The notes under the pieces were generated by a model. The model did no database searches. It had not been told where the DNA came from and was given only the letters and a program-made list of their open reading frames with translations. Position numbers and translations under genes: made by a program. From Candidatus Woesearchaeota archaeon (GTDB lineage Archaea > Nanobdellota > Nanobdellia > Woesearchaeales > GW2011-AR9): a stretch of 50,625 bases of DNA. Positions 9,714 through 50,625 of this stretch are shown one piece after another (the first letter of the stretch is position 1; each line of letters opens with the position of its first letter). Location: positions 1 to 50,625 of the forward strand of contig JABHWJ010000013.1 in the NCBI GenBank assembly GCA_018657845.1, in the 5' to 3' direction.

Positions 9714-9754
9714 AATAAATTTATATAATTAATAATTTTAGTTAATTCTGATAG

Positions 9755-16814: not shown

Positions 16815-16883
16815 ATGAAGTTTAAAGTTAAAGATACGGAAGAACAAGTTCTTCGGACCTTCCACTCAGGGGATCAGAAATGA
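16815..16883 (+). CDS. Putative 22-aa upstream ORF MKFKVKDTEEQVLRTFHSGDQK
   Basis: GAGGT SD at 16804-16808; its TGA overlaps the AMP phosphorylase ATG (ATGA). Confidence 0.4.
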   Translation: MKFKVKDTEEQVLRTFHSGDQK

Positions 16884-30508: not shown

Positions 30509-31813
30509 CTATTCTCCATCAAATTTTACTAAATGAAAAATATCATATCCTTGCAGTTTTTCTCTTCCTTTAAGGTCTGGGAGATCAATTATAATTGCAA
30601 TCCCAGATATGGTTCCACTTAATTTTTCCACTAGACGACAAGCAGCTTTCATAGTTCCTCCGGTGGCTAAGAGATCATCAATGATAACCACATTATCTTC
30701 TGCACTAATAGAATCTTTGTGCATTTCAATTTGGTCAATACCATATTCTAATTCATATTCCTGAGAAACAGTTTCAGGAGGAAGTTTTCCCTTTTTTCTT
30801 ATTAGCACCAAAGGAAGATTTAATTCGTGGGCAAGAACTGAAGCAAAAATGAATCCTCTAGAATCAATACCTACTATTTTTGTAGGGTTCTTTTTTTTAC
30901 AATATTCCTTTAGTTTAGTTATTGAATGTTTAAATGCTTTGGGATCTCTTAGTAAGGTAGAAACATCTCGAAACATTACTCCTTGTTTAGGCCAGTGAGG
31001 AGTTGTTCTGATTGATTTCTTTAAGTCAAATTCTTTTTCGTTTTCTGTTATTGGTTGAGATGGTTGTCCAACTTTGGGAATTGTATTAGTGAGTAAATTA
31101 GTTACTTTCTCGACATTTTGTTCAAATATTTCTAATACGGCTTCCCAGGTTACTGGTTCTTCGTTTTCTTTCCAACAATCATAATCTGTGGACATGGCAA
31201 TAGCAGCATAAGGGATATTAATTTCGTTAGCGAGGGTAGCTTCAGGAGCAATAGACATGTTAATAATGTCTGCGCCCCAAGCTCTGAACATATGAGATTC
31301 GGCCTTTGTTGAAAACCGGGGCCCTTCAATGGTAACTACAGTTCCTTTTTTATGGTGGTCTATTTTAAGTTCTTCAGCAGTTTTTACTAGAGCTTCTCGA
31401 AGTTGTTGATTGAAAGGATTGGCCATGGGAGTATGAGCTATTTTTCCTGGCTGGAATGATTCATGAAAAGAAATTTTTCTATGTCTGGTGAAATCAATGA
31501 ATTGATCAATGATAATAAAATCTCCTCGTTTGATTTCTTCCTTAAGACTTCCACAAGCAGTGGTTGCTAAGATATGGGTGCAACCAGCATCTTTGAGAGC
31601 TTGAATGTTGGCACGAAAGTTAATTTGGGTTGGAGGAATGGTGTGTTGTCGACCATGGCGAGCAAGGAGAACGACTTCAGTGTCATTTATTCTTCCAACT
31701 TTTAATGAAGAAGAAGGTTGACCATAACGTGTGTCAACAATTAGTTCATGAGCGTCTTGTAAAATATCTGGGTTGTTTAGTCCAGATCCACCGATGATTC
31801 CAATTTTTACCAT
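30509..31813 (-). CDS. 5'-methylthioadenosine phosphorylase fused to adenine phosphoribosyltransferase (MTAP-APRT)
   Basis: N-terminal GIIGGSG, LARHGRQH, IEGPRFSTKAES, INMS, STDYDCW; C-terminal WPKQGVMFRD, SRGF, IRKKGKLP, YELEYG, IDDLLATGGT. Confidence 0.93.
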   Translation of the reverse strand: MVKIGIIGGSGLNNPDILQDAHELIVDTRYGQPSSSLKVGRINDTEVVLLARHGRQHTIPPTQINFRANIQALKDAGCTHILATTACGSLKEEIKRGDFIIIDQFIDFTRHRKISFHESFQPGKIAHTPMANPFNQQLREALVKTAEELKIDHHKKGTVVTIEGPRFSTKAESHMFRAWGADIINMSIAPEATLANEINIPYAAIAMSTDYDCWKENEEPVTWEAVLEIFEQNVEKVTNLLTNTIPKVGQPSQPITENEKEFDLKKSIRTTPHWPKQGVMFRDVSTLLRDPKAFKHSITKLKEYCKKKNPTKIVGIDSRGFIFASVLAHELNLPLVLIRKKGKLPPETVSQEYELEYGIDQIEMHKDSISAEDNVVIIDDLLATGGTMKAACRLVEKLSGTISGIAIIIDLPDLKGREKLQGYDIFHLVKFDGE

Positions 31814-31814
31814 T

Positions 31815-32798
31815 TTAATTTACCTCTTGTTTGAGTTGTTCGGAGTTTAGATCTTTTAAGTTTACACCAATTCTCTCTACCACTTTTGATGCTAATAATG
31901 AACCCAATTTTCCAGCTTTTTCTAAGTCCCAATCATTACAGAAACCATAAAGAAATCCGGCAGCATAACTATCTCCTGCCCCAGTTGTGTCAATAGCTTC
32001 GGTGAGGAAGGGTTCGATAAAGTTAACAATTCCATCTTTGCAGATTAAGGAACCTTCTTTGCCAATTTTAACAATGGCGATTTTAACATGGTTGGCTAAT
32101 TCTTGAACAGCTTCTTCTGGTTCTAGGCCAGTAAATTCTTTAGCTTCAGTTTCATTAACAAAAACAATGTCTGCATGATTCATTACTAAATCTTTAAGAA
32201 ATTCTTTATTTCTTCTGATTAATCCTGGATCGGCTAGGTCAATAGAAACTAACGTGTTGTGTTTCTTGGCTAGTTCGATTGCATGTAGGATTGTTTCTTT
32301 AGTTGGCCCTTCAATTTGGTAACCTTCTAAATGGAGGACTTTGCTTTTTTGAATGTCTTCTTCTAAGACGTCTTCTTTAGCTAACTGAATTGCTGCCCCT
32401 AAGTGAACGGAGAAAGTTCGTTCTGAATCTGGAGTGATGAAGGTCAGGGCGTGACCAGTTATGGATGGGTGGGTGTTTATTTTTGTAGAGACTCCGTTTT
32501 TTTGTATCTCTTGGATGTAGATTTCACCATGTTCATCAGTACCTACTTTTCCGCAAAGAATAGATTTTCCTCCGAGGAAAGAGATACACTTGAGAGTGTT
32601 TGCTGCACTACCTCCAGGAACTTTTTCTATTTTTAATTGGTGTTGGTTGATTTTTTCTAAAAGAAGTTTTGCTTGATCTTCTTCAACGAGATGCATTTCT
32701 CCTTTAGCTAAATTAAATTCAAGAAGTTTATTATCATCTACTTCTACAAGAAGGTCCATTAAGGCATTTCCTAAACCGATTACGTCGTATGTTTTCAT
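31815..32798 (-). CDS. PfkB-family kinase, adenosine kinase-like
   Basis: GNALMD, GGSAANT, LEGY, FVNETEA, DTTGAGDSYAAGFL; operon context. Confidence 0.85.
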   Translation of the reverse strand: MKTYDVIGLGNALMDLLVEVDDNKLLEFNLAKGEMHLVEEDQAKLLLEKINQHQLKIEKVPGGSAANTLKCISFLGGKSILCGKVGTDEHGEIYIQEIQKNGVSTKINTHPSITGHALTFITPDSERTFSVHLGAAIQLAKEDVLEEDIQKSKVLHLEGYQIEGPTKETILHAIELAKKHNTLVSIDLADPGLIRRNKEFLKDLVMNHADIVFVNETEAKEFTGLEPEEAVQELANHVKIAIVKIGKEGSLICKDGIVNFIEPFLTEAIDTTGAGDSYAAGFLYGFCNDWDLEKAGKLGSLLASKVVERIGVNLKDLNSEQLKQEVN

Positions 32799-32812
32799 TT
32801 TTTGTATTTGGG

Positions 32813-34225
32813 TTAATATCTGTAATGCTCTGATTTATATGGCCCTTCTTTTGGAACATCTAGATATTTAGATTGTTTGTCAGTCATGACATCAAGTTCT
32901 ACTCCGATTTTTTTCAGATGCAGTCTAGCAACTTCTTCATCTAATTCTTTTGGTAGAACAGTTACGCCAAGTTCATGAGGTTTTGTCCACAATTCAATTT
33001 GAGCAAGAACTTGGTTAGTGAAACTGTTTGACATTACAAAACTAGGGTGGCCAGTTGCACATCCTAAATTAATTAATCTTCCTTCTGCAAGAATATAGAT
33101 TTCTTTTCCATCCAAAGTATATTTGTCATATTGTGGTTTGATGTTTTCTTTAGTTGCTCCAGATTTGTTATCTAACCAATCCATATCAATTTCGTTGTCA
33201 AAGTGACCGATGTTACAAACTATCGCTTGGTCTTTCATCATTTGAAAATGTCTGTCAACGATGACATGATAATTTCCAGTAGTTGTTACAAAGAGATCTC
33301 CTTCTTTGGCAGCGTTGTCCATCTTTTTAACTTCATATCCTTCCATTGCTGCTTGTAAAGCATTAATTGGATCGATTTCTGTTACAACTACACGACAACC
33401 ATATCCTTTAAGTGATTGGGCGCAACCTTTTCCAACATCTCCATAACCAGCAACAACCGCAACTTTTCCTGCTAACATTACATCGGTTGCTCTTTTGATT
33501 CCATCAACTAAAGATTCTCTACATCCATAAAGATTGTCGAACTTAGATTTAGTTACAGAATCATTGACGTTAATTGCAGGGAATAAAAGTTTTTTTTTTC
33601 TAGCCATTTGGTAAAGTCTGTGCACACCAGTAGTAGTTTCTTCAGAAACTCCCTTTACTTCTTTAACCACATTAGTCCAACGTTGATTATTTTCGGTGTA
33701 GGTTTCTTTAAGTGAGTTAATTAATTCTTTGAAGTCTTCTCCTTCCGTAGAATAATCTTGTTCTAAAACTGAAGAGTCCTTTTCAATATCTACTCCTTTA
33801 TGGATCATCATGGTAGCATCCCCACCATCATCAACAATTATTGTTGGGCCTTTTCCTTCTCCAAAGTCTAACGCTTTCTTGGTGCACCACCAATATTCTT
33901 TAAGAGATTCTCCTTTCCAGGCAAAAACTGGAATTTCTTGAGCTGCAATCGCAGCAGCAGCATGATCCTGTGTTGAGAAAATATTACAAGAAGCCCATCT
34001 TACTTCTGCTCCGAGAAGTTTGAGGGTTTCGATTAGAACTGCGGTTTGAATTGTCATATGCAAAGAGCCCATGATTCTTGACCCTCGAAGGGGTTTACTT
34101 TCTTGGTATTTTTCTCTAATTGCTATAAGGCCAGGCATCTCTTTCTCGGCAATTTTGATTTCTTTTCTTCCCCAATCTGCTAAGGAGAGGTCTTTTATTT
34201 TATAATCAGTAAAGTTTTCATTCAT
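32813..34225 (-). CDS. ahcY: S-adenosyl-L-homocysteine hydrolase (long form with insertion)
   Basis: [57 protein letters not shown]; AGGTGA SD favours ATG 34225 over GTG 34234. Confidence 0.97.
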
Positions 34226-34303
34226 ATTAGTCACCTTTTTGTATTTATTTTAAGGTTGAATCTAAACACAATATATATAAAGATTTAGGAATTATCTTTC
34301 ACT

Positions 34304-37081: not shown

Positions 37082-39109
37082 ATGCATAAAAAGAGGTGTA
37101 TTAGAGATAGGAATAGTTGGGAGAGTAATAAAAAAGGTCAGCTAACAATTTTTATAATTTTAGGAATTGTGCTTATTATTGCAGTTGCTTTGGGATTGGT
37201 TTTATGGAAAGGGACAGCTGTTTTTAAGCCAAGTAAAATATTTCTTTCAGAAAAAGGAAAAGTAGAATCTCAGATAACTTCTTGTATTTCGATTATAGGG
37301 CAGGAGGCTCTAGATATCATCGGGGCAACAGGAGGATATATTGAAATTCCTGATGAGATTTCTAAGGATGGTGGAAGTCATCTTAAACTTTCTCCATTTA
37401 TACTTGTCCCCTATTGGAGTGTGGGGCAATCAAAAAGAATTCCTTCTATAGATTTAGTCAAGGAAAGAATTGATGCATATATGGAATCAAGATTGCCATC
37501 ATGTATTTTTGCACCCTCTGAATTATTTGATGAATTTGATATTGTTGAAAAAGGTCCAGTGGAATCAAATGTTGAATTAGTAGATGGAGGAATTATCTTT
37601 AATGTTCGATATGATCTAGAAGTTAGAAATAAAGATGGATCTGTAGTTACAGAATTAATTGATCACTTAGCAGAATCTGATATTAAACTAAAGAACCTTC
37701 ATGAGATGGCCAGTGCAATAATGGAAGCTGAATTTGAAGAGTTGAAGTTAGAAGATATAACTATGGATTTAATTTCTCTAGAACACCCAAAGGTTCCTTT
37801 AATTGGTTTTGATATGAGTTGTACTAAAAAGAAATGGAAAGTAAATGAGGTACAAAGTACTTTGCAAGATATGTTAAGAGTTAATGTGGGAGAATTAAAA
37901 GTAAGTGGAACAAATTATGTGGAATTTCCAGAAGAACTTCCCTATTATAATACTCATTATGTTTGGAATGTAGGTTTAGAGGATCCAGAAATTACAGTTA
38001 ATCTAAATTATCAAGATGGGTTTCCGTTTTATTTCCAGGTGACTCCAAGTCAAGGAAATACTATGAAAAGTGGAGTTCTAGGGGGACAAAGTTTGTTATC
38101 CTTTTTATGTTTGCAATCTTGGAAGTTTACTTATGATGTGAGTTATCCAGTGATGGTAGAATTAATTGATGATACTACTGGGTATTTGTTTAATATGGCT
38201 TTTACAGTTCATGTGGTGCGAAATCAAGCTAATCGGAATGAAGCTACCACTACAATAAATCCTTCGCTATTAATTGATATTGGGGGAGATAATGAAGTTT
38301 ATTGTGAAGATTATGCTAAAAAACCATTGTTAGTTAAAACGTATGAGTTAATTCAGAATGAAGAAACAGGAATTTCTGACCATAAGCCTTTGAAAGATGT
38401 AGAGATAAGTTATACTTGTTTAAAGTATACTTGTGAGATGGGTGAAAGTGATTACAATTATGCAAAATATGGCGACGTAGCAATTTTAGATGAGATGTTT
38501 CCTTATTGTCCAGGTGCTTTATTGAGAGGAAACAAAGAAGGATACAAAGAAGCAATGGTGAGAGTAGTAACGGACAAGTATAAAGAAGTTGAGTTGAACA
38601 TGATCCCTATTTATTTATTAGATTCAGAGAAAATAAAAGTTGTTAAACATGGGTTTAAAGATCCTTTAACTGGAATTGAGGATGTTGCGGGGGCAGATGC
38701 TTTGGAAAAAGGAGAATTGGCTTCAGTAAAAATAACTAACAAGAAAGGAGGGGAAGTTTTCCACGAAGCAACATATATTTATCGTATGGAGAAAGGAGGG
38801 TTTAGTTTATTAGATCTTAATGAAGAGGATTCAGCAAAAGCTGAAAGTAGTTTAGAGTTATTGGGAGGAACAGATTTCAGTTATGAATTGGAAATTTATG
38901 TTTTTGATGAAACTGATATCAAAGGAGGATATCAAGGAATTTGGGATGTTGATTGGGATTCTTTGAAAAGTGGAGGAGATGTCGTTTTCCATGTATTAGC
39001 TCAAGACTCATGGGATTCCGATGTTGATATGTTTGATTTTGTAGCAAATTTAGATGTGTATAGTTCATATGTAACGGTTCCAACAATCGGGAGCGTAGGT
39101 GAAGAATGA
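37082..39109 (+). CDS. Large exported protein with class III (type IV pilin-like) signal peptide
   Basis: KKG|QLTIFIILGIVLIIAV; CI......ALD.IG..GGY motif; first gene of a coupled operon. Confidence 0.8.
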   Translation: MHKKRCIRDRNSWESNKKGQLTIFIILGIVLIIAVALGLVLWKGTAVFKPSKIFLSEKGKVESQITSCISIIGQEALDIIGATGGYIEIPDEISKDGGSHLKLSPFILVPYWSVGQSKRIPSIDLVKERIDAYMESRLPSCIFAPSELFDEFDIVEKGPVESNVELVDGGIIFNVRYDLEVRNKDGSVVTELIDHLAESDIKLKNLHEMASAIMEAEFEELKLEDITMDLISLEHPKVPLIGFDMSCTKKKWKVNEVQSTLQDMLRVNVGELKVSGTNYVEFPEELPYYNTHYVWNVGLEDPEITVNLNYQDGFPFYFQVTPSQGNTMKSGVLGGQSLLSFLCLQSWKFTYDVSYPVMVELIDDTTGYLFNMAFTVHVVRNQANRNEATTTINPSLLIDIGGDNEVYCEDYAKKPLLVKTYELIQNEETGISDHKPLKDVEISYTCLKYTCEMGESDYNYAKYGDVAILDEMFPYCPGALLRGNKEGYKEAMVRVVTDKYKEVELNMIPIYLLDSEKIKVVKHGFKDPLTGIEDVAGADALEKGELASVKITNKKGGEVFHEATYIYRMEKGGFSLLDLNEEDSAKAESSLELLGGTDFSYELEIYVFDETDIKGGYQGIWDVDWDSLKSGGDVVFHVLAQDSWDSDVDMFDFVANLDVYSSYVTVPTIGSVGEE

Positions 39110-42100
39110 ATACTAAAAAACTGGTGACTTTATTTATCATTATGTTAATGGTAATGCTCCCAGTAGTTTCAGCTGTGGAAATTTCAGAAGTGGTGGTAAG
39201 GGATGTCACTGAAACTGGAGCAACAGTAGAATGGTTGACTGATGAAGAAGCTGATAGTGCAGTTGATTATGGTTTAGATAAAGAAAATTTTTCTAATGAA
39301 ATGAATGAAGAAGAGGTTTTAGAACATTCTGTGGCTTTGGTTGGTTTGGATTCTGGAAGTGATTATTATTTTAAGGTAATGAGTGGTGATGCAGAAGATG
39401 ACAATAGTGGAGATTTTTATTCATTCAAAACTTTAGAAGGAGAGGTTGTTGAGGAAGAAGGTTTTAAGTTAGAGATTGAAGTTCCAGAATATCTTGCAGA
39501 AGAAGAGGTTGATCTTACAGGGGTAGCTTCGGTAGGAAGTAAGGTTAAATTATATCTTGATGGGTTATTAGAAGGGATTGTAACTGTTAGTGAAGAAGGA
39601 ACTTTTGAATTTTTGGAAGTAGATTTGACGAGAAATGAGTGGAATACTTTATTGTTTTTAGCTAAGAGTGGAGAGGAGGAGATTAGTAAGGAGTTTAAGG
39701 TATTTGTAGATCTGAAGGCTCCACAGATAAGTTTGATTGGAGAGGTTCCTGAATTTCTTTTGGAAGCTGAATTAGCTATTAAGGGTAAGATCGGTGAGGA
39801 AGCCCAAGTAGTGGTTTTACTTAATGAACAAGAGGTTTATAATAATAAGACTAGTGAGTTTTTAGTTGATTTAACTTTGGTTGAGGGAGAGAATACCTTA
39901 TTAATTAGTGCAGAAGATTTAGCTGGAAATAAAGAATTTGTAGAAAGAACTATTTTATTAGACATGTCTGCTCCCGAAGTAAGTTTTGATTTTGAAAAAG
40001 GGATGGAATATTATCAAGGGAATGCAGAAACACAGATTTTTGGACAAACAGAAGCAGGAGCAAAATTATATCTTTATTATTTTAAACAAACAGCTTCTGG
40101 AAAAGATCCAGACTTTAGTAGGGCTTTTGGTGAAGCAACTGCCGATGAGAATGGAAGCTTTGTTTTTGACGAAGTAGATTTAGATCACCCGCCTACATTT
40201 ACTTTATTAGAGAAATTAGGCCCTAAACAAGTACCACAAGAATTATTAGAAGTAGAGATTTCTTCTTATGAAGGGGCAGATCAACAAGAAAATTGGATAA
40301 CTTATGTTTATGTTATTGCTGAAGACAAAGCAGGTAGGGTAGGTTATGCAGAGAAAACTATTCAGATTCATTCTTGTTTCTCTGGAGAGTTGAAGTTTAA
40401 TGTTATGCCATTGACTGAATTTCAGTTACCTAGACGTTTGGATCCAGATTTATTAGATGACGGAAGACAGGTTGTTACAATGGTTTTAGATTTAGATTAT
40501 TTGGGACAAGGTCAACCGTTAACAGATGCAAATGGGAATATTATTTCTGAAGGTTTTGAGATTAGTGATATTAATTTTAGAAAAGCTTGTACTCATGGAA
40601 TGATTGATGATGAGAGCACGGCATTAGCTTGTAAGATTTTGCCAGAGACTCCACAGAAAAAAGTTCCTAATGCCAATAAGGATGCTTGGTTTGTTCAATA
40701 TACTTTAAACTCTGCTGAAGATTTTAGTGAAAAGGAAGATGATTTTTGGAATGATTTTAAGAAAAGGCAAGTTGTGTTTCCAATAAAAGCAGAGATAAGT
40801 TATCGAGAAAGATTAGCCCCTGGACAACAAGGTTATAATTCTAATCAATATGGGGGACAACAGAGCCCATATAGTCAATATAGTCAATACAGTGGTTCTG
40901 GAAGTAGTCTTTATGGAGGTAGTAGTTATGGAAGCGCATATGGCAGTAATTATGGTAACAATGTTTATGGAAGCCAATTATATGGTCCTTTGAAAACACA
41001 AACGGTTTGTTTAAATCCTGGTTATTTCGTAGATATTCCAATTGATAGTGAAGATTTAATTCCCGATTGGTTGGCTGATGATGGAGTTAGAATTCTGAAT
41101 AATACAATAGAAACAATTGATACAATAAATGAATATTTGTATGATGCAATGGTTATTGCGGGAGTTACTTGCGGAGCGAGTTTTATATTGAGGATGGCAG
41201 CTAGATGGTATAGGTTATTCCAACAGAAATGGGAACCTTATCTTTCAGAAGCTGAAAAACTTGCTGCGGCAGTAGGTGTAACTACAGGAGAAAAAGGCCA
41301 ATGTCCTTTGGATCAAGGTGGACTATTTGCTGATGACACAATTGCTAATTGGAAGAAGTTACAAAATAGTGATCATGCAGACAAGCAAACAGCTAATTTC
41401 CCAGAAAATTTAGATGATCTTAGTTTGAATCTGAAATTGAATTGTCCAAAAACTGCCAGTGCTTGGAAAATAGAAGATGGAATAGATCAAGTTTTCAAAT
41501 ATTCTTGTTATCGGGTGTTCTGTAAAGCGGCCCCCGCTAGATGGACTGAGGATAAAACAGAAACTAAGGTTCAAGCAACCATATTAAAGGGTCAGAGTTG
41601 TGGAGGAACAACTGGAAAAGGATTACCTCTACAGAAATTAGAAAATTGTGATAAAGAATTTACTTACATGAGTACTTCGTTGGGTTTGAAAGGAATCCAG
41701 CAAACTGGGACTGAAAACTTGAGAGATTGTTGGAAAGGTCCTAATGGAGTAATCTATTTTTATTTTAAGCAGAAGAATACAAATGTAGATGAACGAAATA
41801 AAGGGATATATCATTTAACACCATTAGATCATATTACTGGTTCTTTTGGAGATATTCCTGCAGATGATTTAGTTGTTTATCAACCAAAAGGTTCAGATAA
41901 TTATATTGTGGGGGTAGATGACACTTGTAATAATCTTTGTAAAAGGACTCCTGGATTTGAGGCTTTGAAAAAGGGACAAGGTTTAACTAAAGCTTGTAAG
42001 TTAGAGAAAAAAGACGGTTCTATTGAAGTGAATACTGGAGAATTTACTGCAGGATATACTAAAGATTGTTTTATTAATGAAAAAACAAAAACTTTACAGC

Positions 42101-44526
42101 AGTGTATCTGTGTGGGAGCTGAAGAGAAACAAGAAACTTATGCGGCGAGAACGGCATTAAGGGCGGATGGAAATAATGTCGAAGAGTGGTCTTATCGACA
42201 AGATCGGATTTTCCAAGAATCTAATGAACAACAAGGAACTTATTACCCAAAATGGAGATATTATGGGGGAAGAGATTTCCCAGCTAGTTTTGGTTTAAAC
42301 CATTTATTAGATTATACGCGTCCAGATAATGAGGAGATTGCAGAAGTCAATCCAAATACTCAACATATTGGGGCAGTGCAAAGTTTGTGCATTAGTGGAG
42401 TGTACAATAGGTTAAAATTATTAAGAGACACTTTAGATTATGTGGCACAGTGTATTACTGATGCGAAACATAATAGTATAAATGATGCAGGAATTTGTAA
42501 ACATTTAATGAGTCAATATGTTTGTGGTTTGGTATACAAGATAATTGCATATGCTGCTAAAGGATGTTTACCAATAACTTTTAGTGATGAAGAATCTAAG
42601 GGTAGTTTTGATAAATTAGGAAAAGGAATAGAACTTGGAATTGGTTCTCTTTATGAAACAGTAGATACTTCTTTTGAAGATTTGAAAAGTGAGTTTGGTA
42701 ATGCTAAATTAAATGAATTTGTATCTGGAGGAGTAGAAGGTTTTACTCGATCGGTGTGTATGGCAGCATTGGGTTATGATTGGGTTTTTGATATGGATTT
42801 CTTAATGGATGCAGCTTATGCAACTCCATTTAAGACAACTGCCTTAGTGATACCAGAAAGAGAATTAGTATCTTATGATCCAACTCAGAAATCAGCTATC
42901 TATAGTTATAGCTTGGGAGCGTCATTATTTCCGGGATGTGATATCCGAAGTTGGAATGTTAAATTGAAATGTGTGGGTCCAGAAGACATGGGCAAGCCAG
43001 GAGTAGATTGTACCCAACAAGGCTGTGACTGTGCGAAGATCTCAGGAGCTTCTCCATTCTCTTACGATCGGGAAAGGATAATGGAGGGTGGAACTGGATT
43101 TGATGTAAGTGCCGGAGGATATGCTAGTTTACCTGTACCTTCGCCACAAATTATTACTAGCCAATATAGATATGATCACGTTGTAGTAGAGTTGATGTTA
43201 GAGCAATATGCAGATCCATCGACTTGTTTTGATGAAGGATATTTCACTGGAAATGTAGGGAGATTCTATTTCCCAGTTGTAGAAGTTGGAAGTGAGCCAA
43301 GTGTGGATTGTAATGTTGATTTAGAGTCAGGTAGATTTATTTGTAGTGGGTTGTCTGAGTTTTTTAGTACCGGAGCAGGTTACTTTGAATGGCCATTTGT
43401 GGATTGTGCAAATCAGGAATCGGGAGGGTATGTTGCATGTAATAGTCCAAATGGAATTATAAAAGGAGATCCCTTAATTATAAGACCACACATAACTACT
43501 GATGGGACGCAAGATTTGTGTATGTATATGACTTTAAATGGAGGTCCACAATCAATCACGAAAGTAGGAAAGATTCCTAAATTAAATGTGGGGTCAATAA
43601 GTCCTACTTATTCTTTTAGTCCAAGTTTAGATAATAGTTGGTTTGTGGGAGGGTTAGGAGAGAATATTTTCTTGGACCAGGGAACAAGTAATCTTGGGTG
43701 TAATGATGCACTTGCAAAGGAGAAAACTGGTGATCCAATAAAGTCTAATGGGGTATTTTCTGTATCTTTTACAGGAGGAAGTATTGCTGGAACTTTTAAA
43801 GTGAAGGTGGGTGCGACTGTTGAAACTCCAGGTTATACAAAAAGTGAAGAACTCTTGATTAACCCTGCCAATAGTGGGCAAGATTTTAATGTTAATCAAA
43901 TAAATCAAATACCCTTTGTGGTAGGCGGATATAAAATTAAAAACATTTTGAAGAGTACTTTTGTAGGGCCGAATGGGAAGTGTACTTGGAAGACGCAATC
44001 AGCTAACACTCCTGGGATGCAAACAACTGGGACGAAGACATTAACATTAAGTATGGAATTAAGGTATCCTGGATTGGGAGGAAGTTGCGAATTAGGAGTT
44101 ACTACCAAAATACCAGGTTCACAATTTGGAGTTACAGGACATCAACAACCAATAGTAATTCAGGAATCTAAAATATCTTTGGTTAGCCAAGATGTCCAAG
44201 AAACTTATGATTACTTTTTGGCAGGATCATATGCAGATACTTTTACTCGAGCAATTAATATGGTCCAAGGCAATGAGGGAGGAGAGAAGGAAATCCATGC
44301 TTATTATTTGGCTGTTGCGGCGAGAGTTTTACAAGGGGCAAATCAAGCAGAGAATACAAATCCTAAAGCGTATAAAGATGAAGTTGTTGGTTTGATTACC
44401 CAGTTTGCTAATGAAAATTATGGTCCAGAGATTAAAGGAAGGAATGATTACAAGAAAATAGCTGCGTATATGAAGGAGATTGGGAACGCTTTTGGAGTAA
44501 GTGGGGATATTTTGTCTAAAATTTGA
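39106..44526 (+). CDS. 1806-aa secreted protein: FN3-like domain, Ig-like repeats, Cys-rich body
   Basis: Signal peptide VVSA|VE; ATVEWLTDE..S.V.YG..H.V.L.GL...YYFKV.S (FN3-like); D..AP and EGEN...AEDLAGN Ig repeats; internal hydrophobic segment; ATGA overlap. Confidence 0.85.
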   Translation: MNTKKLVTLFIIMLMVMLPVVSAVEISEVVVRDVTETGATVEWLTDEEADSAVDYGLDKENFSNEMNEEEVLEHSVALVGLDSGSDYYFKVMSGDAEDDNSGDFYSFKTLEGEVVEEEGFKLEIEVPEYLAEEEVDLTGVASVGSKVKLYLDGLLEGIVTVSEEGTFEFLEVDLTRNEWNTLLFLAKSGEEEISKEFKVFVDLKAPQISLIGEVPEFLLEAELAIKGKIGEEAQVVVLLNEQEVYNNKTSEFLVDLTLVEGENTLLISAEDLAGNKEFVERTILLDMSAPEVSFDFEKGMEYYQGNAETQIFGQTEAGAKLYLYYFKQTASGKDPDFSRAFGEATADENGSFVFDEVDLDHPPTFTLLEKLGPKQVPQELLEVEISSYEGADQQENWITYVYVIAEDKAGRVGYAEKTIQIHSCFSGELKFNVMPLTEFQLPRRLDPDLLDDGRQVVTMVLDLDYLGQGQPLTDANGNIISEGFEISDINFRKACTHGMIDDESTALACKILPETPQKKVPNANKDAWFVQYTLNSAEDFSEKEDDFWNDFKKRQVVFPIKAEISYRERLAPGQQGYNSNQYGGQQSPYSQYSQYSGSGSSLYGGSSYGSAYGSNYGNNVYGSQLYGPLKTQTVCLNPGYFVDIPIDSEDLIPDWLADDGVRILNNTIETIDTINEYLYDAMVIAGVTCGASFILRMAARWYRLFQQKWEPYLSEAEKLAAAVGVTTGEKGQCPLDQGGLFADDTIANWKKLQNSDHADKQTANFPENLDDLSLNLKLNCPKTASAWKIEDGIDQVFKYSCYRVFCKAAPARWTEDKTETKVQATILKGQSCGGTTGKGLPLQKLENCDKEFTYMSTSLGLKGIQQTGTENLRDCWKGPNGVIYFYFKQKNTNVDERNKGIYHLTPLDHITGSFGDIPADDLVVYQPKGSDNYIVGVDDTCNNLCKRTPGFEALKKGQGLTKACKLEKKDGSIEVNTGEFTAGYTKDCFINEKTKTLQQCICVGAEEKQETYAARTALRADGNNVEEWSYRQDRIFQESNEQQGTYYPKWRYYGGRDFPASFGLNHLLDYTRPDNEEIAEVNPNTQHIGAVQSLCISGVYNRLKLLRDTLDYVAQCITDAKHNSINDAGICKHLMSQYVCGLVYKIIAYAAKGCLPITFSDEESKGSFDKLGKGIELGIGSLYETVDTSFEDLKSEFGNAKLNEFVSGGVEGFTRSVCMAALGYDWVFDMDFLMDAAYATPFKTTALVIPERELVSYDPTQKSAIYSYSLGASLFPGCDIRSWNVKLKCVGPEDMGKPGVDCTQQGCDCAKISGASPFSYDRERIMEGGTGFDVSAGGYASLPVPSPQIITSQYRYDHVVVELMLEQYADPSTCFDEGYFTGNVGRFYFPVVEVGSEPSVDCNVDLESGRFICSGLSEFFSTGAGYFEWPFVDCANQESGGYVACNSPNGIIKGDPLIIRPHITTDGTQDLCMYMTLNGGPQSITKVGKIPKLNVGSISPTYSFSPSLDNSWFVGGLGENIFLDQGTSNLGCNDALAKEKTGDPIKSNGVFSVSFTGGSIAGTFKVKVGATVETPGYTKSEELLINPANSGQDFNVNQINQIPFVVGGYKIKNILKSTFVGPNGKCTWKTQSANTPGMQTTGTKTLTLSMELRYPGLGGSCELGVTTKIPGSQFGVTGHQQPIVIQESKISLVSQDVQETYDYFLAGSYADTFTRAINMVQGNEGGEKEIHAYYLAVAARVLQGANQAENTNPKAYKDEVVGLITQFANENYGPEIKGRNDYKKIAAYMKEIGNAFGVSGDILSKI

Positions 44527-44554
44527 TAATTTAATATTTGTTTAATTTAATAAA

Positions 44555-45082
44555 ATGAGAGAAAAAAGAGGGAAGGCGAGGACGATTGTATTGTTATTAC
44601 TATTTTTAATAGTGTTCTTGGTATTGATATATGGTGGTTATTTTTATAAATTAATGGAAAAAGAGAAAGTAGAATTGGACGAAGATTTAGGATTGGGAGA
44701 AGAACCAGATATTGGAGAGGTAACTGATTCTGAGGAGCCTGAAGTGGTGGAAGATGTTTCAGAAGAATCTGAAGAAACTTTAGTCGGATGTAATAAACAT
44801 CTTGAGGAATTAAATTGTGTTAAAGAGGGTTGTTTGTGGGAAAGTGATTTAATTTTATGTTATGATTACGGAGAGATTGAAGAAGAGTGTAGTTTTAGTG
44901 AGAGTGAAAATGATTGTTTGTTGTTTGGTTGTATTTGGAATGAAAAAGATCTTTCTTGTGAGGAATTTGAAGAGACGTCTGATGTTTTAGGTTGTTTTGA
45001 TTTTATTGATAAGCAGAATTGTGAGGCAGAGAATTGTTTTTGGGATGCAATAGAAGAACTGTGTGAGGAAAGAGAAATATGA
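44555..45082 (+). CDS. Membrane-anchored acidic protein with three C-x8-C-x4-C-x-W-x6-C repeats
   Basis: KRG plus TM; repeats CNKH..CLW, CSFS..CIW, CFDF..CFW. Confidence 0.8.
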   Translation: MREKRGKARTIVLLLLFLIVFLVLIYGGYFYKLMEKEKVELDEDLGLGEEPDIGEVTDSEEPEVVEDVSEESEETLVGCNKHLEELNCVKEGCLWESDLILCYDYGEIEEECSFSESENDCLLFGCIWNEKDLSCEEFEETSDVLGCFDFIDKQNCEAENCFWDAIEELCEEREI

Positions 45083-48000
45083 AGAAAGGATTTTTATTAA
45101 TGTTTTTTTTTGGGTTGTTTTTTTTAAGTGCAGGATTAGTTCAGGCAATAATTCCTTATTCAATTTTGGTTCAAGACTGTGATCCGTATATGCTTAGTGA
45201 GACTGGATGTGCTACTAATGATCTTACTGAAGACGTTTATTATTTTTATGATGAAGTGGAGAGGAGTTGGAAGTATCAATTAGACTCTGGACTTACTTTA
45301 GGGACTGGAGAATGGTTAGAATTAAATGAGATCTCTATAGATATACAAGATAATGTTTTTGATCCAGGGATTGAAAGTTGTGGACAACATGATTTTATTT
45401 ATCGTGAATATTGTTGGCTTAATAATTTTTTGATAGAAGCGCATGAAGATTCAATAGAATGGTTGTATGATTCTGAAGAAGCTTATGATCCAGTTTATTT
45501 AGATGGGTTAGATGTAATCTGTAAATGGCATCGACAAGAGGAAATAGATTCTGGACCTTGGTCGCCTGCCACTGGTCTCAACCGCCCATTTGAAGGGAAG
45601 ATTTTTTTTGTTCCTGAATTATTAGAAACAGAATATCCAGTGGAAAAAATATTATATCCTGGGGAGGATTTGGGAGTTGTTACTACTGCGTTTGCATGTG
45701 ATAATTCTCAAATGAAATTAAAACAAGAAGAAGAATTAAATTTTGAATTTTCTAGTTTGGGCCAATATTGTGATTATTCTTTTGAATGCGAAACGGGAGT
45801 TTGTGCAGATGGGGTTTGTTGTGATCAGAAATGTGATTGGGGGTGTTCATCTTGTGCTTCAGAAGGAAACGAAGGATCTTGTGTTCAAAAACCAGAAAAC
45901 ACAACTTGCGGAAATGGTAAAATTTGTACTCTAGAAGGAGAGTGTAAAAAAGAGTTGGGAGTGAAATGTAGTCTAGGAGAAGAGTGTTTAAGTGGTAATT
46001 GCAACAGCGGGGTTTGTTGTAACGTAGAATGTGAAGGTGGTTGTGAGTATTGCAATAAGCCTGGAAAGGTGGGGACTTGTATTTTTAGATATAGTGGTTA
46101 TCCTGGGTTAGATTATTGTCCAGCTGGAGAAGTTTGTGATGGTTATGGTGGATGTAAAGAAGGAAAAGTTGTGTGGTTGGCAAACGAACAAGATGTTCCT
46201 CCGGAAGAAGAGTTCACTGATGAAGTGATTATAGATGATCCCGAAAGTGTAAACTATTTGTGTAAGAATTGTTATGTTACTCCTTATCAAGAAACTGAGG
46301 CGGTTGGAAAGGCATCGGATGGTTTTTTATTGAATGGAGTTAGATTGTTACTCAATGACCCTAGTTCTCCTTATCTATCTGCTAGAAAAAATAATTATGG
46401 TACAATAGAATTAATCAGATCTTTAGAAGCAGCCTCTTGTTATATGAATCAGAATTTTGGGGGAGTAAAATTACAGATAAACGATTTGAGTAAAGAGAAA
46501 GGGGGAGAAATATCTGGACATGCTAGTCACGAGAGTGGGTTGGATGTAGATACTGGAATATTTACTTTTTCTAACGGGAATTTTGAAGGAGAATTAAGTA
46601 AGAAATGTTTATCTGAGATTGTTGTTGAAGTTAATTCTGAAGGAAAGGAAGTGAAGAAAGTTGGTTGTAAGGCGGGAAAGGTTTATGATTCTTTTAATAA
46701 TCCAGAAGCCTTAAGAGCCAATTGGGAATTTTTGAAAAAGTTAAATCAAATTTATGATGTACAATTTATTTTCTTGGATAAAGAATTGATAAATCCAATT
46801 AAAAAATATGCCACTTCTATTGGCGAAGGGCATCTTTGGGGGGAAGTAGGAGGTGTGCTTAAACATTGGCCCAATCACCATCATCATTATCACATCAGAT
46901 TAAAGTGTCCACTTGGAGATAAAAAGTGTAAGGGTGCAGGAGCGGTTAAGGAAACCCCCTGTGAAAGTGTTGATGAAGAAATAAATAATTGTGAAAGCAC
47001 TTTCAAAAAAGAAGGTTTTCAATGTATGTTTAAGGGAAGTGAAGGAGATGCAATTACTTCTGGATGTAAAGTTACAGAAGCATGTTATGGTGGAGAATGT
47101 TGTTCAGCAGGAGATTATTGTTGTCCAATCAGTGGAGAGAAAGGAAAATTAGTAGGGAAAGAATTAGATGAGACCGCAGTAATTGTAGAAAGTTTAGAGT
47201 GGAAAGAAACTAATGTTGAAGGGGCGGATTTGTATATTTATGAAACTCAATGTAAATCTAAATTAAATGAGTTGAATGATAGGGTTGAGGGGATTGTGTT
47301 ACCTAAAGGATTAGCTAAAGAGTCTACCTTAGGAGAGGTATGTGCAGATGCTTCATTTGAAACAATGATAATTGGAAGTCTTCCATATCCGACAAATCTT
47401 AAAAAATGGGAAGATGCAATAAAAGCAGAAGGCTTACCTGGAAAAACATGGATGGGGAAATTAGATTCTAATGGTCCAACTGATGAAAAGTTCATGGAAG
47501 ATGTTGGAAGAGATTCTTTGCTTTTTATTCCATGTACTACTGATTTAAGTCAACCCTTAGAAATATTTTATTTTTTGCATGGAAATAGGGGATTTGGTGG
47601 TCCAAAAGATTTGAATGATTTTAAAACTAGGGCGGCTCCTAAAATTAAGGAAATGGGTTTAGATGGAAGAAATATTATTTGGGTGATTCCGGAATTACCT
47701 TGGTCTTCAGGAGACGAATCTAAGCAAGCGCTAGCTAAAGGAACTGGAAGGGCAATTCCTAAGAGGCAAAAAAGTCTTTTGGCAAAGGGAAATTTGGAAG
47801 GAATAGACTTTGTTCAATTTCATCAAGATATCATGGTGATTATAGAAGAGCTTGAACCAAGTTTTGATGAAAGTTTAGTTACTTATATTTCTATGGCTGG
47901 TCACAGTGCAGGAGGAGCGGCCTTATGGTGGGCAGCAGAAAGTGGGGCTTTAGAAACTTTAGCAGTTAATAAAATAACTTTTTCTGATGCCGATTATTTT

Positions 48001-49017
48001 GGTGGAGCGAAAAAAGTATGGGCGAAGTATTTTGGTGGAGGAAAAGTTCCAGGGGGACTGGGAGCAGAAATTGGAGCAGAATTAAACTTGTTAGTTCAGG
48101 ATCCTAGCAACAGGGGTGCCCATAATCCTACAGCTTCGGCGTTGAGTTTTATTAAAAAATGGAAAGGAAATCTTCCAGATAATATTAATTATGTTCCTTT
48201 AAAGATGAAGCATAGGCCAATTGGGAAATATTCCTTATCTTGGGTTAGTGATAATCCTCCTATTGAGGCTGTAGATATTCCTTATGTCAATAGAGAAATA
48301 ATTGAAGATGGTTCTAAAAAAGAAGTAAAAGTTTATTTTTATTTTCATGGTAATACTAAATCTACCCAGAGTAAGAGTTTTGTAGAAAGTTATGTAGAAA
48401 ATTATGATCTGTTAGAAAATATGGCTGGGTTAGAAGAAAAGACTGGAGAGAAAGGAGTTTTGGTTGTGTTGAAAGGAGCTTCTCCTAACAGTGTGGGAAA
48501 TTCTGGACAGTGGATGAAAGGGACAAGAGGAGATGAATCTTGGTTTAGTTGTTTTTATGATGAAGCTTTAGTGAAGTTAGATGATTTGGGTTTAAAGCCT
48601 ACTTCAATGAGGTTGATGTCTCATAGTGCAGGGGGTAAGGCGATTAGGAATATTGTTAATTCTGGGTTTTTGGGCGAATCGGGATTGTTGCCTTTAGAAT
48701 CTGTATCTTATTATGATTCTTGTTATGGGGGTTGGTGTAGTGATGTTATGGATGAAATTGTGGATGAAGAAGCAGAGATTTTTGCTATCTGGTCTCCAGA
48801 AGGAGCTTCTCCCCAGAATAAGGTTTCAGCATTTAGTTTTTTGACTGGGATGAGTAAGGAAGAAGTGAAAGGAATGAAAAATGGAGATGTATATGAAGGA
48901 AAGGAAGGATTTGAAAATACTGTTTATGCTGTTAAGGTAGAAGAGTCTCATGGAGATGTAGTGAGGAAATGTTTTTACAACTATATTTCTGATGGGGAAT
49001 GTGAGGCGGCTAGTTAA
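45079..49017 (+). CDS. Secreted multidomain hydrolase: Cys-rich repeats, MepA/M74 murein endopeptidase domain, two alpha/beta-hydrolase domains
   Basis: Signal LVQA|II; AVG....G.L.NG, YGT.EL, NDLS..GG, GHASHESGLDVD, WPNHHHHYHIRLKCP....C; then FLHG/GHSAGG/SDA and FHG/SHSAGG/YDS. Confidence 0.85.
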   Translation: MKKGFLLMFFFGLFFLSAGLVQAIIPYSILVQDCDPYMLSETGCATNDLTEDVYYFYDEVERSWKYQLDSGLTLGTGEWLELNEISIDIQDNVFDPGIESCGQHDFIYREYCWLNNFLIEAHEDSIEWLYDSEEAYDPVYLDGLDVICKWHRQEEIDSGPWSPATGLNRPFEGKIFFVPELLETEYPVEKILYPGEDLGVVTTAFACDNSQMKLKQEEELNFEFSSLGQYCDYSFECETGVCADGVCCDQKCDWGCSSCASEGNEGSCVQKPENTTCGNGKICTLEGECKKELGVKCSLGEECLSGNCNSGVCCNVECEGGCEYCNKPGKVGTCIFRYSGYPGLDYCPAGEVCDGYGGCKEGKVVWLANEQDVPPEEEFTDEVIIDDPESVNYLCKNCYVTPYQETEAVGKASDGFLLNGVRLLLNDPSSPYLSARKNNYGTIELIRSLEAASCYMNQNFGGVKLQINDLSKEKGGEISGHASHESGLDVDTGIFTFSNGNFEGELSKKCLSEIVVEVNSEGKEVKKVGCKAGKVYDSFNNPEALRANWEFLKKLNQIYDVQFIFLDKELINPIKKYATSIGEGHLWGEVGGVLKHWPNHHHHYHIRLKCPLGDKKCKGAGAVKETPCESVDEEINNCESTFKKEGFQCMFKGSEGDAITSGCKVTEACYGGECCSAGDYCCPISGEKGKLVGKELDETAVIVESLEWKETNVEGADLYIYETQCKSKLNELNDRVEGIVLPKGLAKESTLGEVCADASFETMIIGSLPYPTNLKKWEDAIKAEGLPGKTWMGKLDSNGPTDEKFMEDVGRDSLLFIPCTTDLSQPLEIFYFLHGNRGFGGPKDLNDFKTRAAPKIKEMGLDGRNIIWVIPELPWSSGDESKQALAKGTGRAIPKRQKSLLAKGNLEGIDFVQFHQDIMVIIEELEPSFDESLVTYISMAGHSAGGAALWWAAESGALETLAVNKITFSDADYFGGAKKVWAKYFGGGKVPGGLGAEIGAELNLLVQDPSNRGAHNPTASALSFIKKWKGNLPDNINYVPLKMKHRPIGKYSLSWVSDNPPIEAVDIPYVNREIIEDGSKKEVKVYFYFHGNTKSTQSKSFVESYVENYDLLENMAGLEEKTGEKGVLVVLKGASPNSVGNSGQWMKGTRGDESWFSCFYDEALVKLDDLGLKPTSMRLMSHSAGGKAIRNIVNSGFLGESGLLPLESVSYYDSCYGGWCSDVMDEIVDEEAEIFAIWSPEGASPQNKVSAFSFLTGMSKEEVKGMKNGDVYEGKEGFENTVYAVKVEESHGDVVRKCFYNYISDGECEAAS

Positions 49018-49019
49018 AG

Positions 49020-49601
49020 ATGAGTTTTAATGTAAGAGGAGTTCCAAGGGTTGTTTTAGTTTTGTTAATTATTGGAGGGCTTGTTTTTTTAAGTGCTTTA
49101 ATCTTAGGAGTTACGAATTTGAGTGGGGCTTCTGGAGGAGAAGGAGATGCACTTCTTTATCAGAATGGTCCGTTCGGTGAAGGATTAGTGTTGAAGAATT
49201 TTCAATGGTGTGATTATGTAGATATTTATTATAGATGTATTAATCCAAGGAGTACTTTTGATGTTCCAGGGAGTGTATCTTTTACTTTAACTGTGGAAAG
49301 TGATGTAGTGAGTGGAGGGGTACAGTTGGTAGAAAATTATGCAATTAAGGATAAAGAAGGAAATTATCATTTAGTGATGGATGAAGCGAATGCTATTTAT
49401 TTTGAAGGGATTAGTTCTGAAGATAAGGATAAAGTTTTTTTTAAGAATTCATTTAGGTTAGAAGAAGATCTTAGCCCGGGAGATTATATTTTGGAGTTAG
49501 AAGTAGAGAATCTTTTGTTTGGGGGAAAGTTGACGTTGGAAGAAGAAATTAGTGTTGAGGAAATTTTACCAGAAGATCCGGCAGGGGTGGAGTACCAATG
49601 A
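49020..49601 (+). CDS. Membrane-anchored single Ig-like domain protein
   Basis: RG plus hydrophobic N-terminus; beta-rich with PGDYILELEVEN strand. Confidence 0.7.
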   Translation: MSFNVRGVPRVVLVLLIIGGLVFLSALILGVTNLSGASGGEGDALLYQNGPFGEGLVLKNFQWCDYVDIYYRCINPRSTFDVPGSVSFTLTVESDVVSGGVQLVENYAIKDKEGNYHLVMDEANAIYFEGISSEDKDKVFFKNSFRLEEDLSPGDYILELEVENLLFGGKLTLEEEISVEEILPEDPAGVEYQ

Positions 49602-50625
49602 AAAGATTATTCTGGATTTTGATGATTGTTTTAGTTATGTTTGGTGTTCAAGCACAAGTGGCACCTATTTCTGGAGGGGGGAGTAATGATCCTGGTGTGC
49701 CCCAAGTTGTTTTATCTGGAGATATATTGCAAGATTGTCCGCATTTAGATTTTAATAGCCACAGTAATTCGGAGGCTGTGGGGAAACAATCAGCTGGAAG
49801 TTTGGTTAGTGGAGTGAAGTTACCAGATAGATCTTATTTTAATAAGAATTGGCAATCTTCCAACAATGACGAGCAATATGGGACGATAGAATTAGTAAAT
49901 ACTTTGGAGTTAACTGCTTGTTATATGAATTTGATGTTTGAATCTACTCCTCTTAAAGTTCATGATTTGAGTGTACAAAATGGTGGAAAATTGAATCCAC
50001 ATAAAAGTCATCAGAATGGTTTGGATGTCGACGTGGGATTTTATTTATATGAGGGAACTAGTAATTATGTTAATGTTTGGAAAGAAATGTGTGATCGGGA
50101 GGGAGAGGGAAAAAATTGTTATGCTGCAGGCACTGGTAAATATAATGTAGATCTTCAATTCTTACATCCAGATTCTTTAACGACCAATTGGTGGTTTATT
50201 AAAACGCTAATTAATGTTTATGATGTTCGAGCCATTGCTTTTGATCAAGTTTTACAAGATGTTTTGGAAACTCATGTAAGGGATGTTTTAGGTGAGGGAG
50301 AAGCATGGGATAGACATAAACCCTTGTTTGCTAAATGGCCTGGACATCATGATCATTATCATATTAGGTTGAAATGCCCAAAAGGAGATTTGCACTGTGA
50401 GGGAAGTAAAGCAGAGAAGAATTTTCCAGGAGAGGGGTTTGTAGATCCAGGAGTTCCATCACAAGAGCTTGCGGAGCAGAATACACAAACAACTGGACAA
50501 CAATTACCTGGAGAGCAAACTACTACGGGAGCCTCACCAATTGGAGGGAGTACCCAAGGAGGAGTACAACAATCAACAATTCCTAATTGTGCTTATTGTC
50601 AGAAAATAGATAGTTCTTGGTTAAA
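49598..50625 (+). CDS. Secreted protein with N-terminal MepA/M74 murein endopeptidase domain (3'-truncated by window)
   Basis: Not in ORF track; translated by hand: MKRLFWILMIVLVMFGVQA|Q...SEAVGKQSAGSLVSGVKLP...QYGTIELV...HDLSVQNGG.LNPHKSHQNGLDVD...WPGHHDHYHIRLKCPKGDLHC; no stop before window end. Confidence 0.88.
   Translation, partial: MKRLFWILMIVLVMFGVQAQVAPISGGGSNDPGVPQVVLSGDILQDCPHLDFNSHSNSEAVGKQSAGSLVSGVKLPDRSYFNKNWQSSNNDEQYGTIELVNTLELTACYMNLMFESTPLKVHDLSVQNGGKLNPHKSHQNGLDVDVGFYLYEGTSNYVNVWKEMCDREGEGKNCYAAGTGKYNVDLQFLHPDSLTTNWWFIKTLINVYDVRAIAFDQVLQDVLETHVRDVLGEGEAWDRHKPLFAKWPGHHDHYHIRLKCPKGDLHCEGSKAEKNFPGEGFVDPGVPSQELAEQNTQTTGQQLPGEQTTTGASPIGGSTQGGVQQSTIPNCAYCQKIDSSWL

Follow-up and report, generated by a model that had tools for sequence, protein, structure and literature searches.

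Does any archaeon live on, or prey on, bacteria? The locus described here bears on that question. It lies in a window that is one entire contig, 50,625 nucleotides long (JABHWJ010000013.1), of a marine Candidatus Woesearchaeota genome (GCA_018657845.1, G000 in our set; 862,812 bases in 44 contigs, 89% complete), where six plus-strand open reading frames (ORFs), A to F, occupy positions 37082–50625. An earlier note on this DNA had described six co-oriented, coupled genes with export signals, and the ORFs, overlaps and gaps are read directly from the sequence as it claimed. The genes are tightly coupled, by ATGA overlaps at 39106, 45079 and 49598 and by gaps of 28 nt (B/C) and 2 nt (D/E), and all six products have export signals, the signals or anchors of B, C, D, E and F being judged by reading the N-terminal hydrophobic stretches. 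In related genomes A, B and E form a conserved scaffold, and the position after E, here called the cargo slot, is filled by varying secreted enzymes, most of which share a module of ~45 residues. On the basis of these comparisons we think it probable that the cluster is a cell-surface display system for enzymes attacking bacterial cell walls. The features concerned are:

37082..39109, plus strand: A, 675 aa; class III (prepilin-like) N-terminus (nt 37082–37207) and large Cys-containing ectodomain
39106..44526, plus strand: B, 1806 aa; secreted giant with signal peptide, stalk, linker and disulfide-rich core
44555..45082, plus strand: C, 175 aa; membrane-anchored, acidic, three Cys/Trp repeats
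45079..49017, plus strand: D, 1312 aa; predicted secreted multidomain enzyme with Cys-rich N-terminal region
46300–46956, plus strand: Peptidase_M74 domain of D (residues 408–626)
47284–48258 and 48259–49014, plus strand: two serine alpha/beta-hydrolase-like domains of D
49020..49601, plus strand: E, 193 aa; small pilin-like protein with N-terminal RG and hydrophobic helix
49598..50623, plus strand: F, 342 aa; secreted Peptidase_M74 protein in the cargo slot, running off the contig end
49775–50422, plus strand: Peptidase_M74 domain of F (residues 60–275)
50588..50623, plus strand: C-x2-C-x-K-I-D-x2-W, probably the first part of F's cargo module, broken off where the contig stops

The scaffold and its cargo slot

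Homologues of A are present in 39 of 41 close relatives and, at E ≤ 1e-20, in 279 of 301 genomes sampled across the order, a tally that counts seven unpublished genomes. Among 108 loci around A homologues, 60 unique loci hold both B and E; the slot is assessable in 55 of these, the remaining five having too little downstream sequence. In the window's family PAC2 is followed by A, B and E, after which comes a gene for a secreted protein and, often, enolase. Outside the family, A and B are followed by an unassigned protein of ~280–300 aa, and the loci contain no E and no hydrolase. Strong E matches are confined to the window's family (5/5 genomes, E ≤ 3e-44), with twelve weak matches elsewhere.

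The ORF after E overlaps E by 4 nt in 24 of the 55 assessable loci. Slot contents were assigned by Pfam scans, extended by local searches seeded with Pfam-labelled segments, and fall into six groups:

Canonical peptidoglycan-hydrolase domain: 31 loci
DUF2272 only: 7 loci
GDSL with FGE-sulfatase-like domain: 4 loci
GDSL only: 4 loci (two cut by the locus end)
DUF218-type: 4 loci
Unknown or none: 5 loci

Peptidoglycan hydrolase domains of about ten families occupy 38 of the 55 slots. The canonical domains are SLT, Amidase_2, M23, M15/M15_4/VanY, SleB-like Hydrolase_2, GH25, glucosaminidase and M74; DUF2272 is grouped in a published classification (PMC10318531) with NlpC/P60–CHAP amidases such as the type VI secretion system (T6SS) effector Tse1. 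Frequent partners of these domains within the cargo are SGNH/GDSL esterases, calcineurin-like and EEP phosphoesterases, polysaccharide deacetylase and a serine hydrolase of the type seen in D. O-acetyl-peptidoglycan esterases clear the way for lytic transglycosylases, and the occurrence of GDSL and SLT on one polypeptide recalls these enzymes. One cargo protein (L030) is 3116 aa long and combines SLT with M15. At another locus (L034 in G004, 9418–10999) the slot contains two ORFs 115 nt apart, one of 315 aa with GDSL and one of 172 aa with SLT; both are devoid of the module, and together they look like a broken cargo gene. At L027 and L099 the gene after E encodes an AlbA_2/HATPase_c_4 (Schlafen-like) protein of cytoplasmic type, not a secreted enzyme.

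Cargo turnover was read on a quick maximum-likelihood tree of A (56 rows). One well-supported pair of sister loci carries Amidase_2 in one member and M74 plus hydrolase in the other (branch lengths 0.15 and 0.12), and a second pair differs by Amidase_2 with FGE versus FGE with DUF2272; other sister pairs have the same cargo. By sequence, a conserved carrier with cargo varying among close relatives is the polymorphic-effector pattern. A synteny survey for a conserved scaffold with variable enzyme cargo had been among the checks proposed in the earlier note. That idea holds strongly in the present comparison, in which the cargo is predicted to be aimed at bacterial peptidoglycan.

The module was found by aligning 41 otherwise unrelated cargo proteins. 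Its pattern is C-x5-C-x-E-I-D-x-V-W, followed by a variable helix-like part, [VI]-W-D and G-x-W, and it lies downstream of E in 52 of the 55 assessable loci. A local hidden Markov model (HMM) recognizes it in 56 of 68 listed downstream ORFs; the twelve that it misses comprise two enolases, a pair of AlbA-like proteins, an ORF of 147 aa, the two fragments of the split cargo, three second or third ORFs, and D and F of the window. All 74 module-bearing ORFs of the 108 loci are in the slot, and none is an A or B of the window's family. Searches of whole genomes gave the module in 36 of 41 family genomes, 31 with exactly one match and five with two. Where the locus is in hand (17 genomes), 18 of 18 module matches fall in the ORF or ORFs after E, and two more matches fit the slot by their distance on the same contig. 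Across the order only five of 301 genomes have the module, all in families f1 and f116: three of the four other sampled genomes of the window's family and two of f116, with none in G000. Of 55 cases, the module stands in the first fifth of the cargo in 15, in its middle in 32 and in its last part in 8. No module match was found in those M23 and SLT genes that lie outside the locus in the genomes checked.

F ends in C-x2-C-x-K-I-D-x2-W, a short pattern that occurs just this once among the genome's 501,238 six-frame residues. Its HMM match is weak because just 11 of the ~45 module positions are present, and the rest of the module probably follows past the end of the contig. Natural fusions tie scaffold and cargo together in some relatives. 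In one (G015), B is extended by ~180 residues, with a Peptidase_M74 domain (E 1.5e-13) at its end; in another, B ends in the bacterial SH3 domain SH3_3, at the cut-off; and in f116 a B homologue of 2176 aa has the module behind a C-terminal region that resembles B. We hypothesize that the module docks the cargo enzyme to the E/B complex.

Gene products and genomic setting

The two Peptidase_M74 domains score well over the Pfam cut-off of 25 bits (D, 60.1 bits, E 3.1e-16; F, 65.1 bits, E 9.7e-18), which bears out the two MepA-domain proteins that the earlier note had recognized, and they are the sole M74 matches in this genome. E. coli MepA is a penicillin-insensitive murein endopeptidase (Peptidase_M74) that cleaves cross-links between D-Ala and meso-diaminopimelic acid (mDAP). 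Aligned to its structure (1tzp), both domains keep the LAS-type motifs H-x2-H...D-x-D and H-x2-H-x-H intact, the residues of which have metal-binding and catalytic roles in MepA. Phmmer scores against 1tzp are just 24–34 bits, and the closest named relative found is a Bdellovibrio protein with 27% identity. M74 is rare in the order (4/301 genomes). A genome of another family, G036, has two M74 matches with in-frame stops, one TGA and one TAA (C50:2352–2957, L126; C115:3016–3660, L129), which may be decayed copies or assembly errors. A profile search of the window's genome gave no SLT, Amidase_2 or M23 match. Across five genomes, 6 of the 11 M74, SLT, Amidase_2 and M23 matches over the cut-off fall inside this ~13-kb locus.

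The hydrolase domains of D have no Pfam match, and profile matches in the PDB reach only E 0.12–3. These 24 weak matches are mostly named esterases or lipases, and the one alignment inspected lies at the nucleophile elbow. The oxyanion HG, the H-S-x-G-G of the nucleophile elbow G-x-S-x-G (GHSAGG in D) and the triad Asp are invariant in seven copies of this domain type, and the C-terminal His of the triad is present in every copy but that of L083, which is cut by the locus end. A bactericidal alpha/beta hydrolase from an archaeon is reported (bioRxiv 10.64898/2026.06.10.730825), and by analogy a lytic role for the hydrolase domains of D is plausible.

The N-terminus of A consists of a charged leader, KKG|Q and a hydrophobic helix; in 30 homologues Q20 never varies and the motif around it is conserved. 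The remaining 630 residues match no known family in Pfam, relaxed thresholds included. A PDB profile search brought up a single pilin chain, without significance (E 1.8), and the Atlas search gave only 'hypothetical protein' clusters of Nanobdellota/Woesearchaeota. Each family genome holds several short and ~800-aa paralogues of A. One short paralogue (253 aa, KRG|Q) shares the N-terminal region of A and is followed by a 678-aa secreted protein at C21:185–2970 (plus strand, L125), on the same contig as the genome's prepilin peptidase.

B begins with a stalk of FN3 and Bap-like Ig domains (~residues 24–420), followed by a low-complexity linker. The FN3/Ig calls are all under the Pfam cut-offs; a profile of 24 B sequences matches the Bap Ig-like domain 7dm0 (E 6.1e-8) and FN3 domains. 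The core, ~1180 residues (nt 40981–44523), has dozens of invariant Cys and no known relatives. The 42 database homologues of B are hypothetical or FN3-containing proteins of Woesearchaeota/Nanoarchaeota, and the Atlas search gave no usable match. Pfam at relaxed thresholds returned nothing meaningful for the core of B, for E or for the parts of D outside M74. We rejected a transmembrane helix in the middle of B, as the hydrophobic stretch is not conserved and the next 1100 residues are full of invariant Cys. An S-layer role for B appears unlikely because of the invariant Cys and the lack of a conserved transmembrane stretch, and because of the natural B fusions.

C has no homologue in the 28 loci, out of the 108, that were compared by blastp. 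Relatives of E carry KKG-x4-E, with a Glu at position +5 (Glu+5); E of the window has RG|V and lacks Glu+5. Homology between A and E was considered and rejected, their profiles aligning only over the N-terminal leader and helix (probability 35%).

The tail of the contig has no overlap with other contigs, and no enolase motif occurs in this assembly. A tRNA scan of the window found none, and promoter and terminator scans, made with bacterial-type patterns, gave counts at or below shuffle expectation. Elsewhere in the window, 21514–24819 (minus strand) encodes a large surface-type protein of 1101 aa with Lamin-tail (LTD) and CARDB domains, unrelated to the cluster. Nucleoside and nucleotide salvage genes are grouped at 16880–18358 (plus strand) and 30509–34234 (minus strand); they encode an AMP/thymidine-phosphorylase-like protein, a PNP_UDP_1–phosphoribosyltransferase fusion, a PfkB kinase and an S-adenosylhomocysteine (AdoHcy) hydrolase, and their grouping would fit a scavenging lifestyle. 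GC skew tracks gene strand: it is very high (0.3–0.48) across plus-strand genes and around zero or below across minus-strand genes, and the coding strand is therefore strongly G-over-C rich. Related database records are titled Candidatus Woesearchaeota, Nanoarchaeota or Nanoarchaeia. Many A-B-E records (L047, L051–L055 and others) bear the title 'uncultured Methanosarcinales archaeon', and their genes and nearest relatives are those of Woesearchaeota/Nanoarchaeota; the titles are probably an automated mislabel.

Probable surface display and competing explanations

In the explanation we favor, A and B would form a surface structure conserved throughout the order, in which the class III N-terminal helix of A would hold it in the membrane or in a short stalk of pilin type. 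B would be the secreted giant, its FN3/Ig stalk resembling an adhesin and its large head rich in disulfides. The window's family would have gained a second small pilin-like protein, E, and the downstream slot. The slot would supply secreted, module-bearing enzymes with shuffled peptidoglycan-cleaving domains (lytic transglycosylase, amidase, M23, M15, M74, SleB-like, GH25 and Tse1-like DUF2272), often with added SGNH/GDSL esterase, alpha/beta-hydrolase or phosphoesterase domains. Docked by the module to the E/B complex, the enzyme would cut the wall of a touched bacterium locally, for attachment, access to the cell contents or killing. The cargo of the window would be F, a predicted M74 endopeptidase, and D an extra, atypically placed enzyme in which M74 is combined with two serine hydrolase domains that may act on envelope esters or lipids. 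Docking, surface display, enzyme activity and a bacterial target are what we infer from these sequences. The observation made in the earlier note is confirmed and its interpretation partly supported; attachment, wall breaching and a bacterial host we likewise infer.

Several observations weigh against this explanation. The related genomes are non-independent samples. A and B occur elsewhere without E, module or hydrolase, and the basic role of the scaffold is therefore more general than wall attack. No recognized peptidoglycan hydrolase occurs in 17 of the 55 slots, and five of the 31 canonical calls (L023, L026, L029, L104 and L115) are under the Pfam cut-off. The NCBIfam MepA model PRK09429 gives 63 and 70 bits for the two M74 domains versus an equivalog cut-off of 272, and their substrate specificity is therefore putative. 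The window is itself an atypical member: its A sits on the longest branch of the A tree; C and D stand between B and E here and at no other locus (1/61, the 60 loci plus the window); D, the largest enzyme of the window, lies in this insertion and has no module; and F is cut where the module would start, so that no module match is scored in this genome.

A true type IV-like pilus would make A and E minor or tip pilins and B a PilY1-like tip adhesin, and would carry the enzymes on an extended, perhaps retractile filament. The class III-type N-termini of A and E, the Glu+5 of E homologues and a Peptidase_A24 prepilin peptidase elsewhere in the genome (C21:11989–12315, 52.9 bits) all suit such a filament, and the short paralogues that share the N-terminal region of A (~250–320 aa) could be its major subunits. 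The sole ATPase candidate, 766 aa long, matches just the T2SSE core (45–47 bits), that is, the P-loop core. It is followed by a 731-aa protein with at least five hydrophobic segments and no Pfam match (C20:12790–17356, minus strand, L124), and the two may be a divergent filament-assembly pair; an ATPase of this type is conserved in 4/4 family genomes without a T2SSF match. T2SSF (PilC/FlaJ) itself gave no match in G000 or in these four genomes, which are 92–98% complete, whereas six matches occur in a genome from a different family of the order. Also against a pilus are the missing Glu+5 in the window's E, the size of A, far above that of a typical pilin, and the occurrence of class III signals on non-pilus archaeal surface proteins. 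The earlier note had proposed a search of the genome for prepilin peptidase and pilus ATPase; the former is present, the latter is represented by a weak core match, and the note's 'pilus' finds no support in the T2SSF searches. On this evidence a surface-anchored display complex is our best reading of the data, and the extended pilus an unlikely rival.

A rival we rate slightly lower still takes A and B as general envelope or adhesion proteins and the enzymes as merely co-transcribed and freely secreted, bacteriocin-like or nutritional, with the module a wall-binding, folding or export element and not a docking tag. Freely acting secreted archaeal peptidoglycan hydrolases are documented (PMC12352652), A and B occur order-wide without cargo, the place of the module varies from cargo to cargo, as might that of a binding domain, and the nearby salvage genes would fit scavenging. 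However, the module is restricted to the slot and to the E-bearing family, natural fusions join B to M74 or to the module, and the ORF after E overlaps it by 4 nt in 24/55 loci; a general wall-binding domain would be expected in hydrolases elsewhere, and in the genomes checked the M23 and SLT genes outside the locus lack the module. That the hydrolases are autolysins remodelling a murein-like wall of the archaeon's own seems very improbable. M74, M23 and SLT enzymes do serve as housekeeping autolysins in bacteria, and three of five family genomes have one Mur-ligase-like match each, but matches to the Mur-ligase family also turn up in archaeal controls devoid of murein synthesis, no penicillin-binding-protein (PBP) transpeptidase match was found in 5/5 genomes and no Mur ligase match in G000 or G023, and swaps of enzyme class between sister lineages are unlike a housekeeping role. 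Least credible of all is an assembly chimera, or a lysis module brought from bacteria by a provirus or mobile element, an idea to which the bacterial-type hydrolase domains and the distant Bdellovibrio relative of M74 lend some color and which the present data already contradict. The archaeal genes TFB, GatD and PAC2 proteasome chaperone lie directly upstream of the cluster, G+C is even along the window (0.33–0.37), and A and B are order-wide archaeal genes, with no phage match for A. The PAC2-A-B order recurs in relatives, at a conserved chromosomal site between PAC2 and, in many of them, enolase. The PAC2/A junction is bridged by contigs of four public marine or seawater runs from four studies, the best of which may itself be the source sample; one 19.6-kb public contig spans 33980–50625 and extends ~3 kb beyond the window end, and none of the runs listed for this sequence is of RNA. 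The region is therefore neither bacterial nor chimeric. The DPANN-type archaeon of the earlier note stands, with a Woesearchaeota-type genome.

Relation to known systems

Full-text literature yielded no description of the A-B-E locus, slot, module or fusions; supplementary tables may list the families. The conserved scaffold, polymorphic slot and cargo module appear to be new. Less is new than the earlier note suggested with its stress on the integration of the enzymes in this operon: diverse archaeal peptidoglycan hydrolases and the idea of bacterial hosts are already in print. Large lytic-transglycosylase proteins and suggested bacterial hosts are described in three papers (PMC8204110; PMC9723730; PMC10936187), and prominent, diverse homologues of secreted archaeal peptidoglycan hydrolases in Nanoarchaeota in a fourth (PMC12352652). 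The present locus would extend such anti-bacterial hydrolases from free enzymes to an apparently organized, fast-evolving system.

Most Woesearchaeales have, to our knowledge, no known host, and the group is among the most diverse archaea. We raise, tentatively and as a possibility short of even, that A-B-E with module-tagged cargo is a contact weapon, or an organelle for access to hosts, that is specific to DPANN and new to the literature. In function it would parallel the effector-delivery systems of bacteria without being homologous to them: the module, a cysteine-hairpin/Trp element of ~45 residues, would load exchangeable enzymes that cleave walls, esters and phosphoesters onto a giant adhesin, itself anchored by pilin-like proteins. 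If this were true, a whole Woesearchaeales family would live on bacteria as episymbionts or prey on them, and the wall chemistry of each lineage's host could be predicted from its cargo type. The locus offers handles: proteins to localize, a tag to pull down and enzymes to assay. Cargo types could be matched to co-occurring bacteria, M74 to mDAP-type walls and SGNH esterase with lytic transglycosylase to O-acetylated walls, and the slot is a source of new lytic enzyme combinations.

Among the known systems, the nearest in lineage are the large extracellular lytic-transglycosylase proteins (fam00969) of Woesearchaeota/Pacearchaeota (Castelle et al., 2021; PMC8204110) and the GH23 genes of the same groups (Vigneron et al., 2022; PMC9723730). 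They share with the present cargo the predicted secreted degradation of murein and the possible bacterial hosts or prey, and the 3116-aa cargo of L030 would fit among them. They differ in being single proteins of one enzyme class, and the available parts of both papers mention no A-B-E neighbors, slot, module or B fusions. Halogranum secretes two peptidoglycan hydrolases, Woldo and Danwoldo, that kill bacteria (Strock et al., 2025; PMC12352652); these are likewise archaeal enzymes of bacterial type with signal peptides. They are free and modular, secreted by the twin-arginine (Tat) route and equipped with known wall-binding domains, and the available part of the paper mentions no M74, operons or pilins. 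The present cargo, in contrast, sits in a fixed slot behind a conserved scaffold and bears a lineage-specific module.

The M74 domains of D and F resemble E. coli MepA in their matches over the Pfam cut-off and in the LAS-type motifs they keep. They differ from it in the weakness of the overall similarity, in their fusion to other domains and in their archaeal origin, and their function is a predicted one. The tip of a type IV pilus consists of minor pilins and a large PilY1-type adhesin. Episymbiotic Saccharibacteria reportedly have host-binding pili (PMC9894109; PMC11623550). The likeness lies in two pilin-like N-termini flanking a giant adhesin-like protein, and in an ultrasmall organism that probably lives on other cells. 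In the present proteins no sequence homology to pilins or PilY1 was detected, and no PilC/FlaJ was found in the genome; pili, for their part, have no enzyme cargo slot.

Bacterial polymorphic toxin and effector systems pair a conserved carrier with effectors that vary but bear the same delivery tag; Tse1, an amidase effector of the T6SS, is an example. The carriers are unrelated to A, B and E, no secretion-machine genes lie near the present cluster, the producer here is an archaeon, which as an organism without murein may need no immunity genes, and the role of the module as a tag is putative. What the two have in common is a conserved carrier, quick exchange of effectors, a short common tag, occasional fusion to the carrier and peptidoglycan amidases among the cargo.

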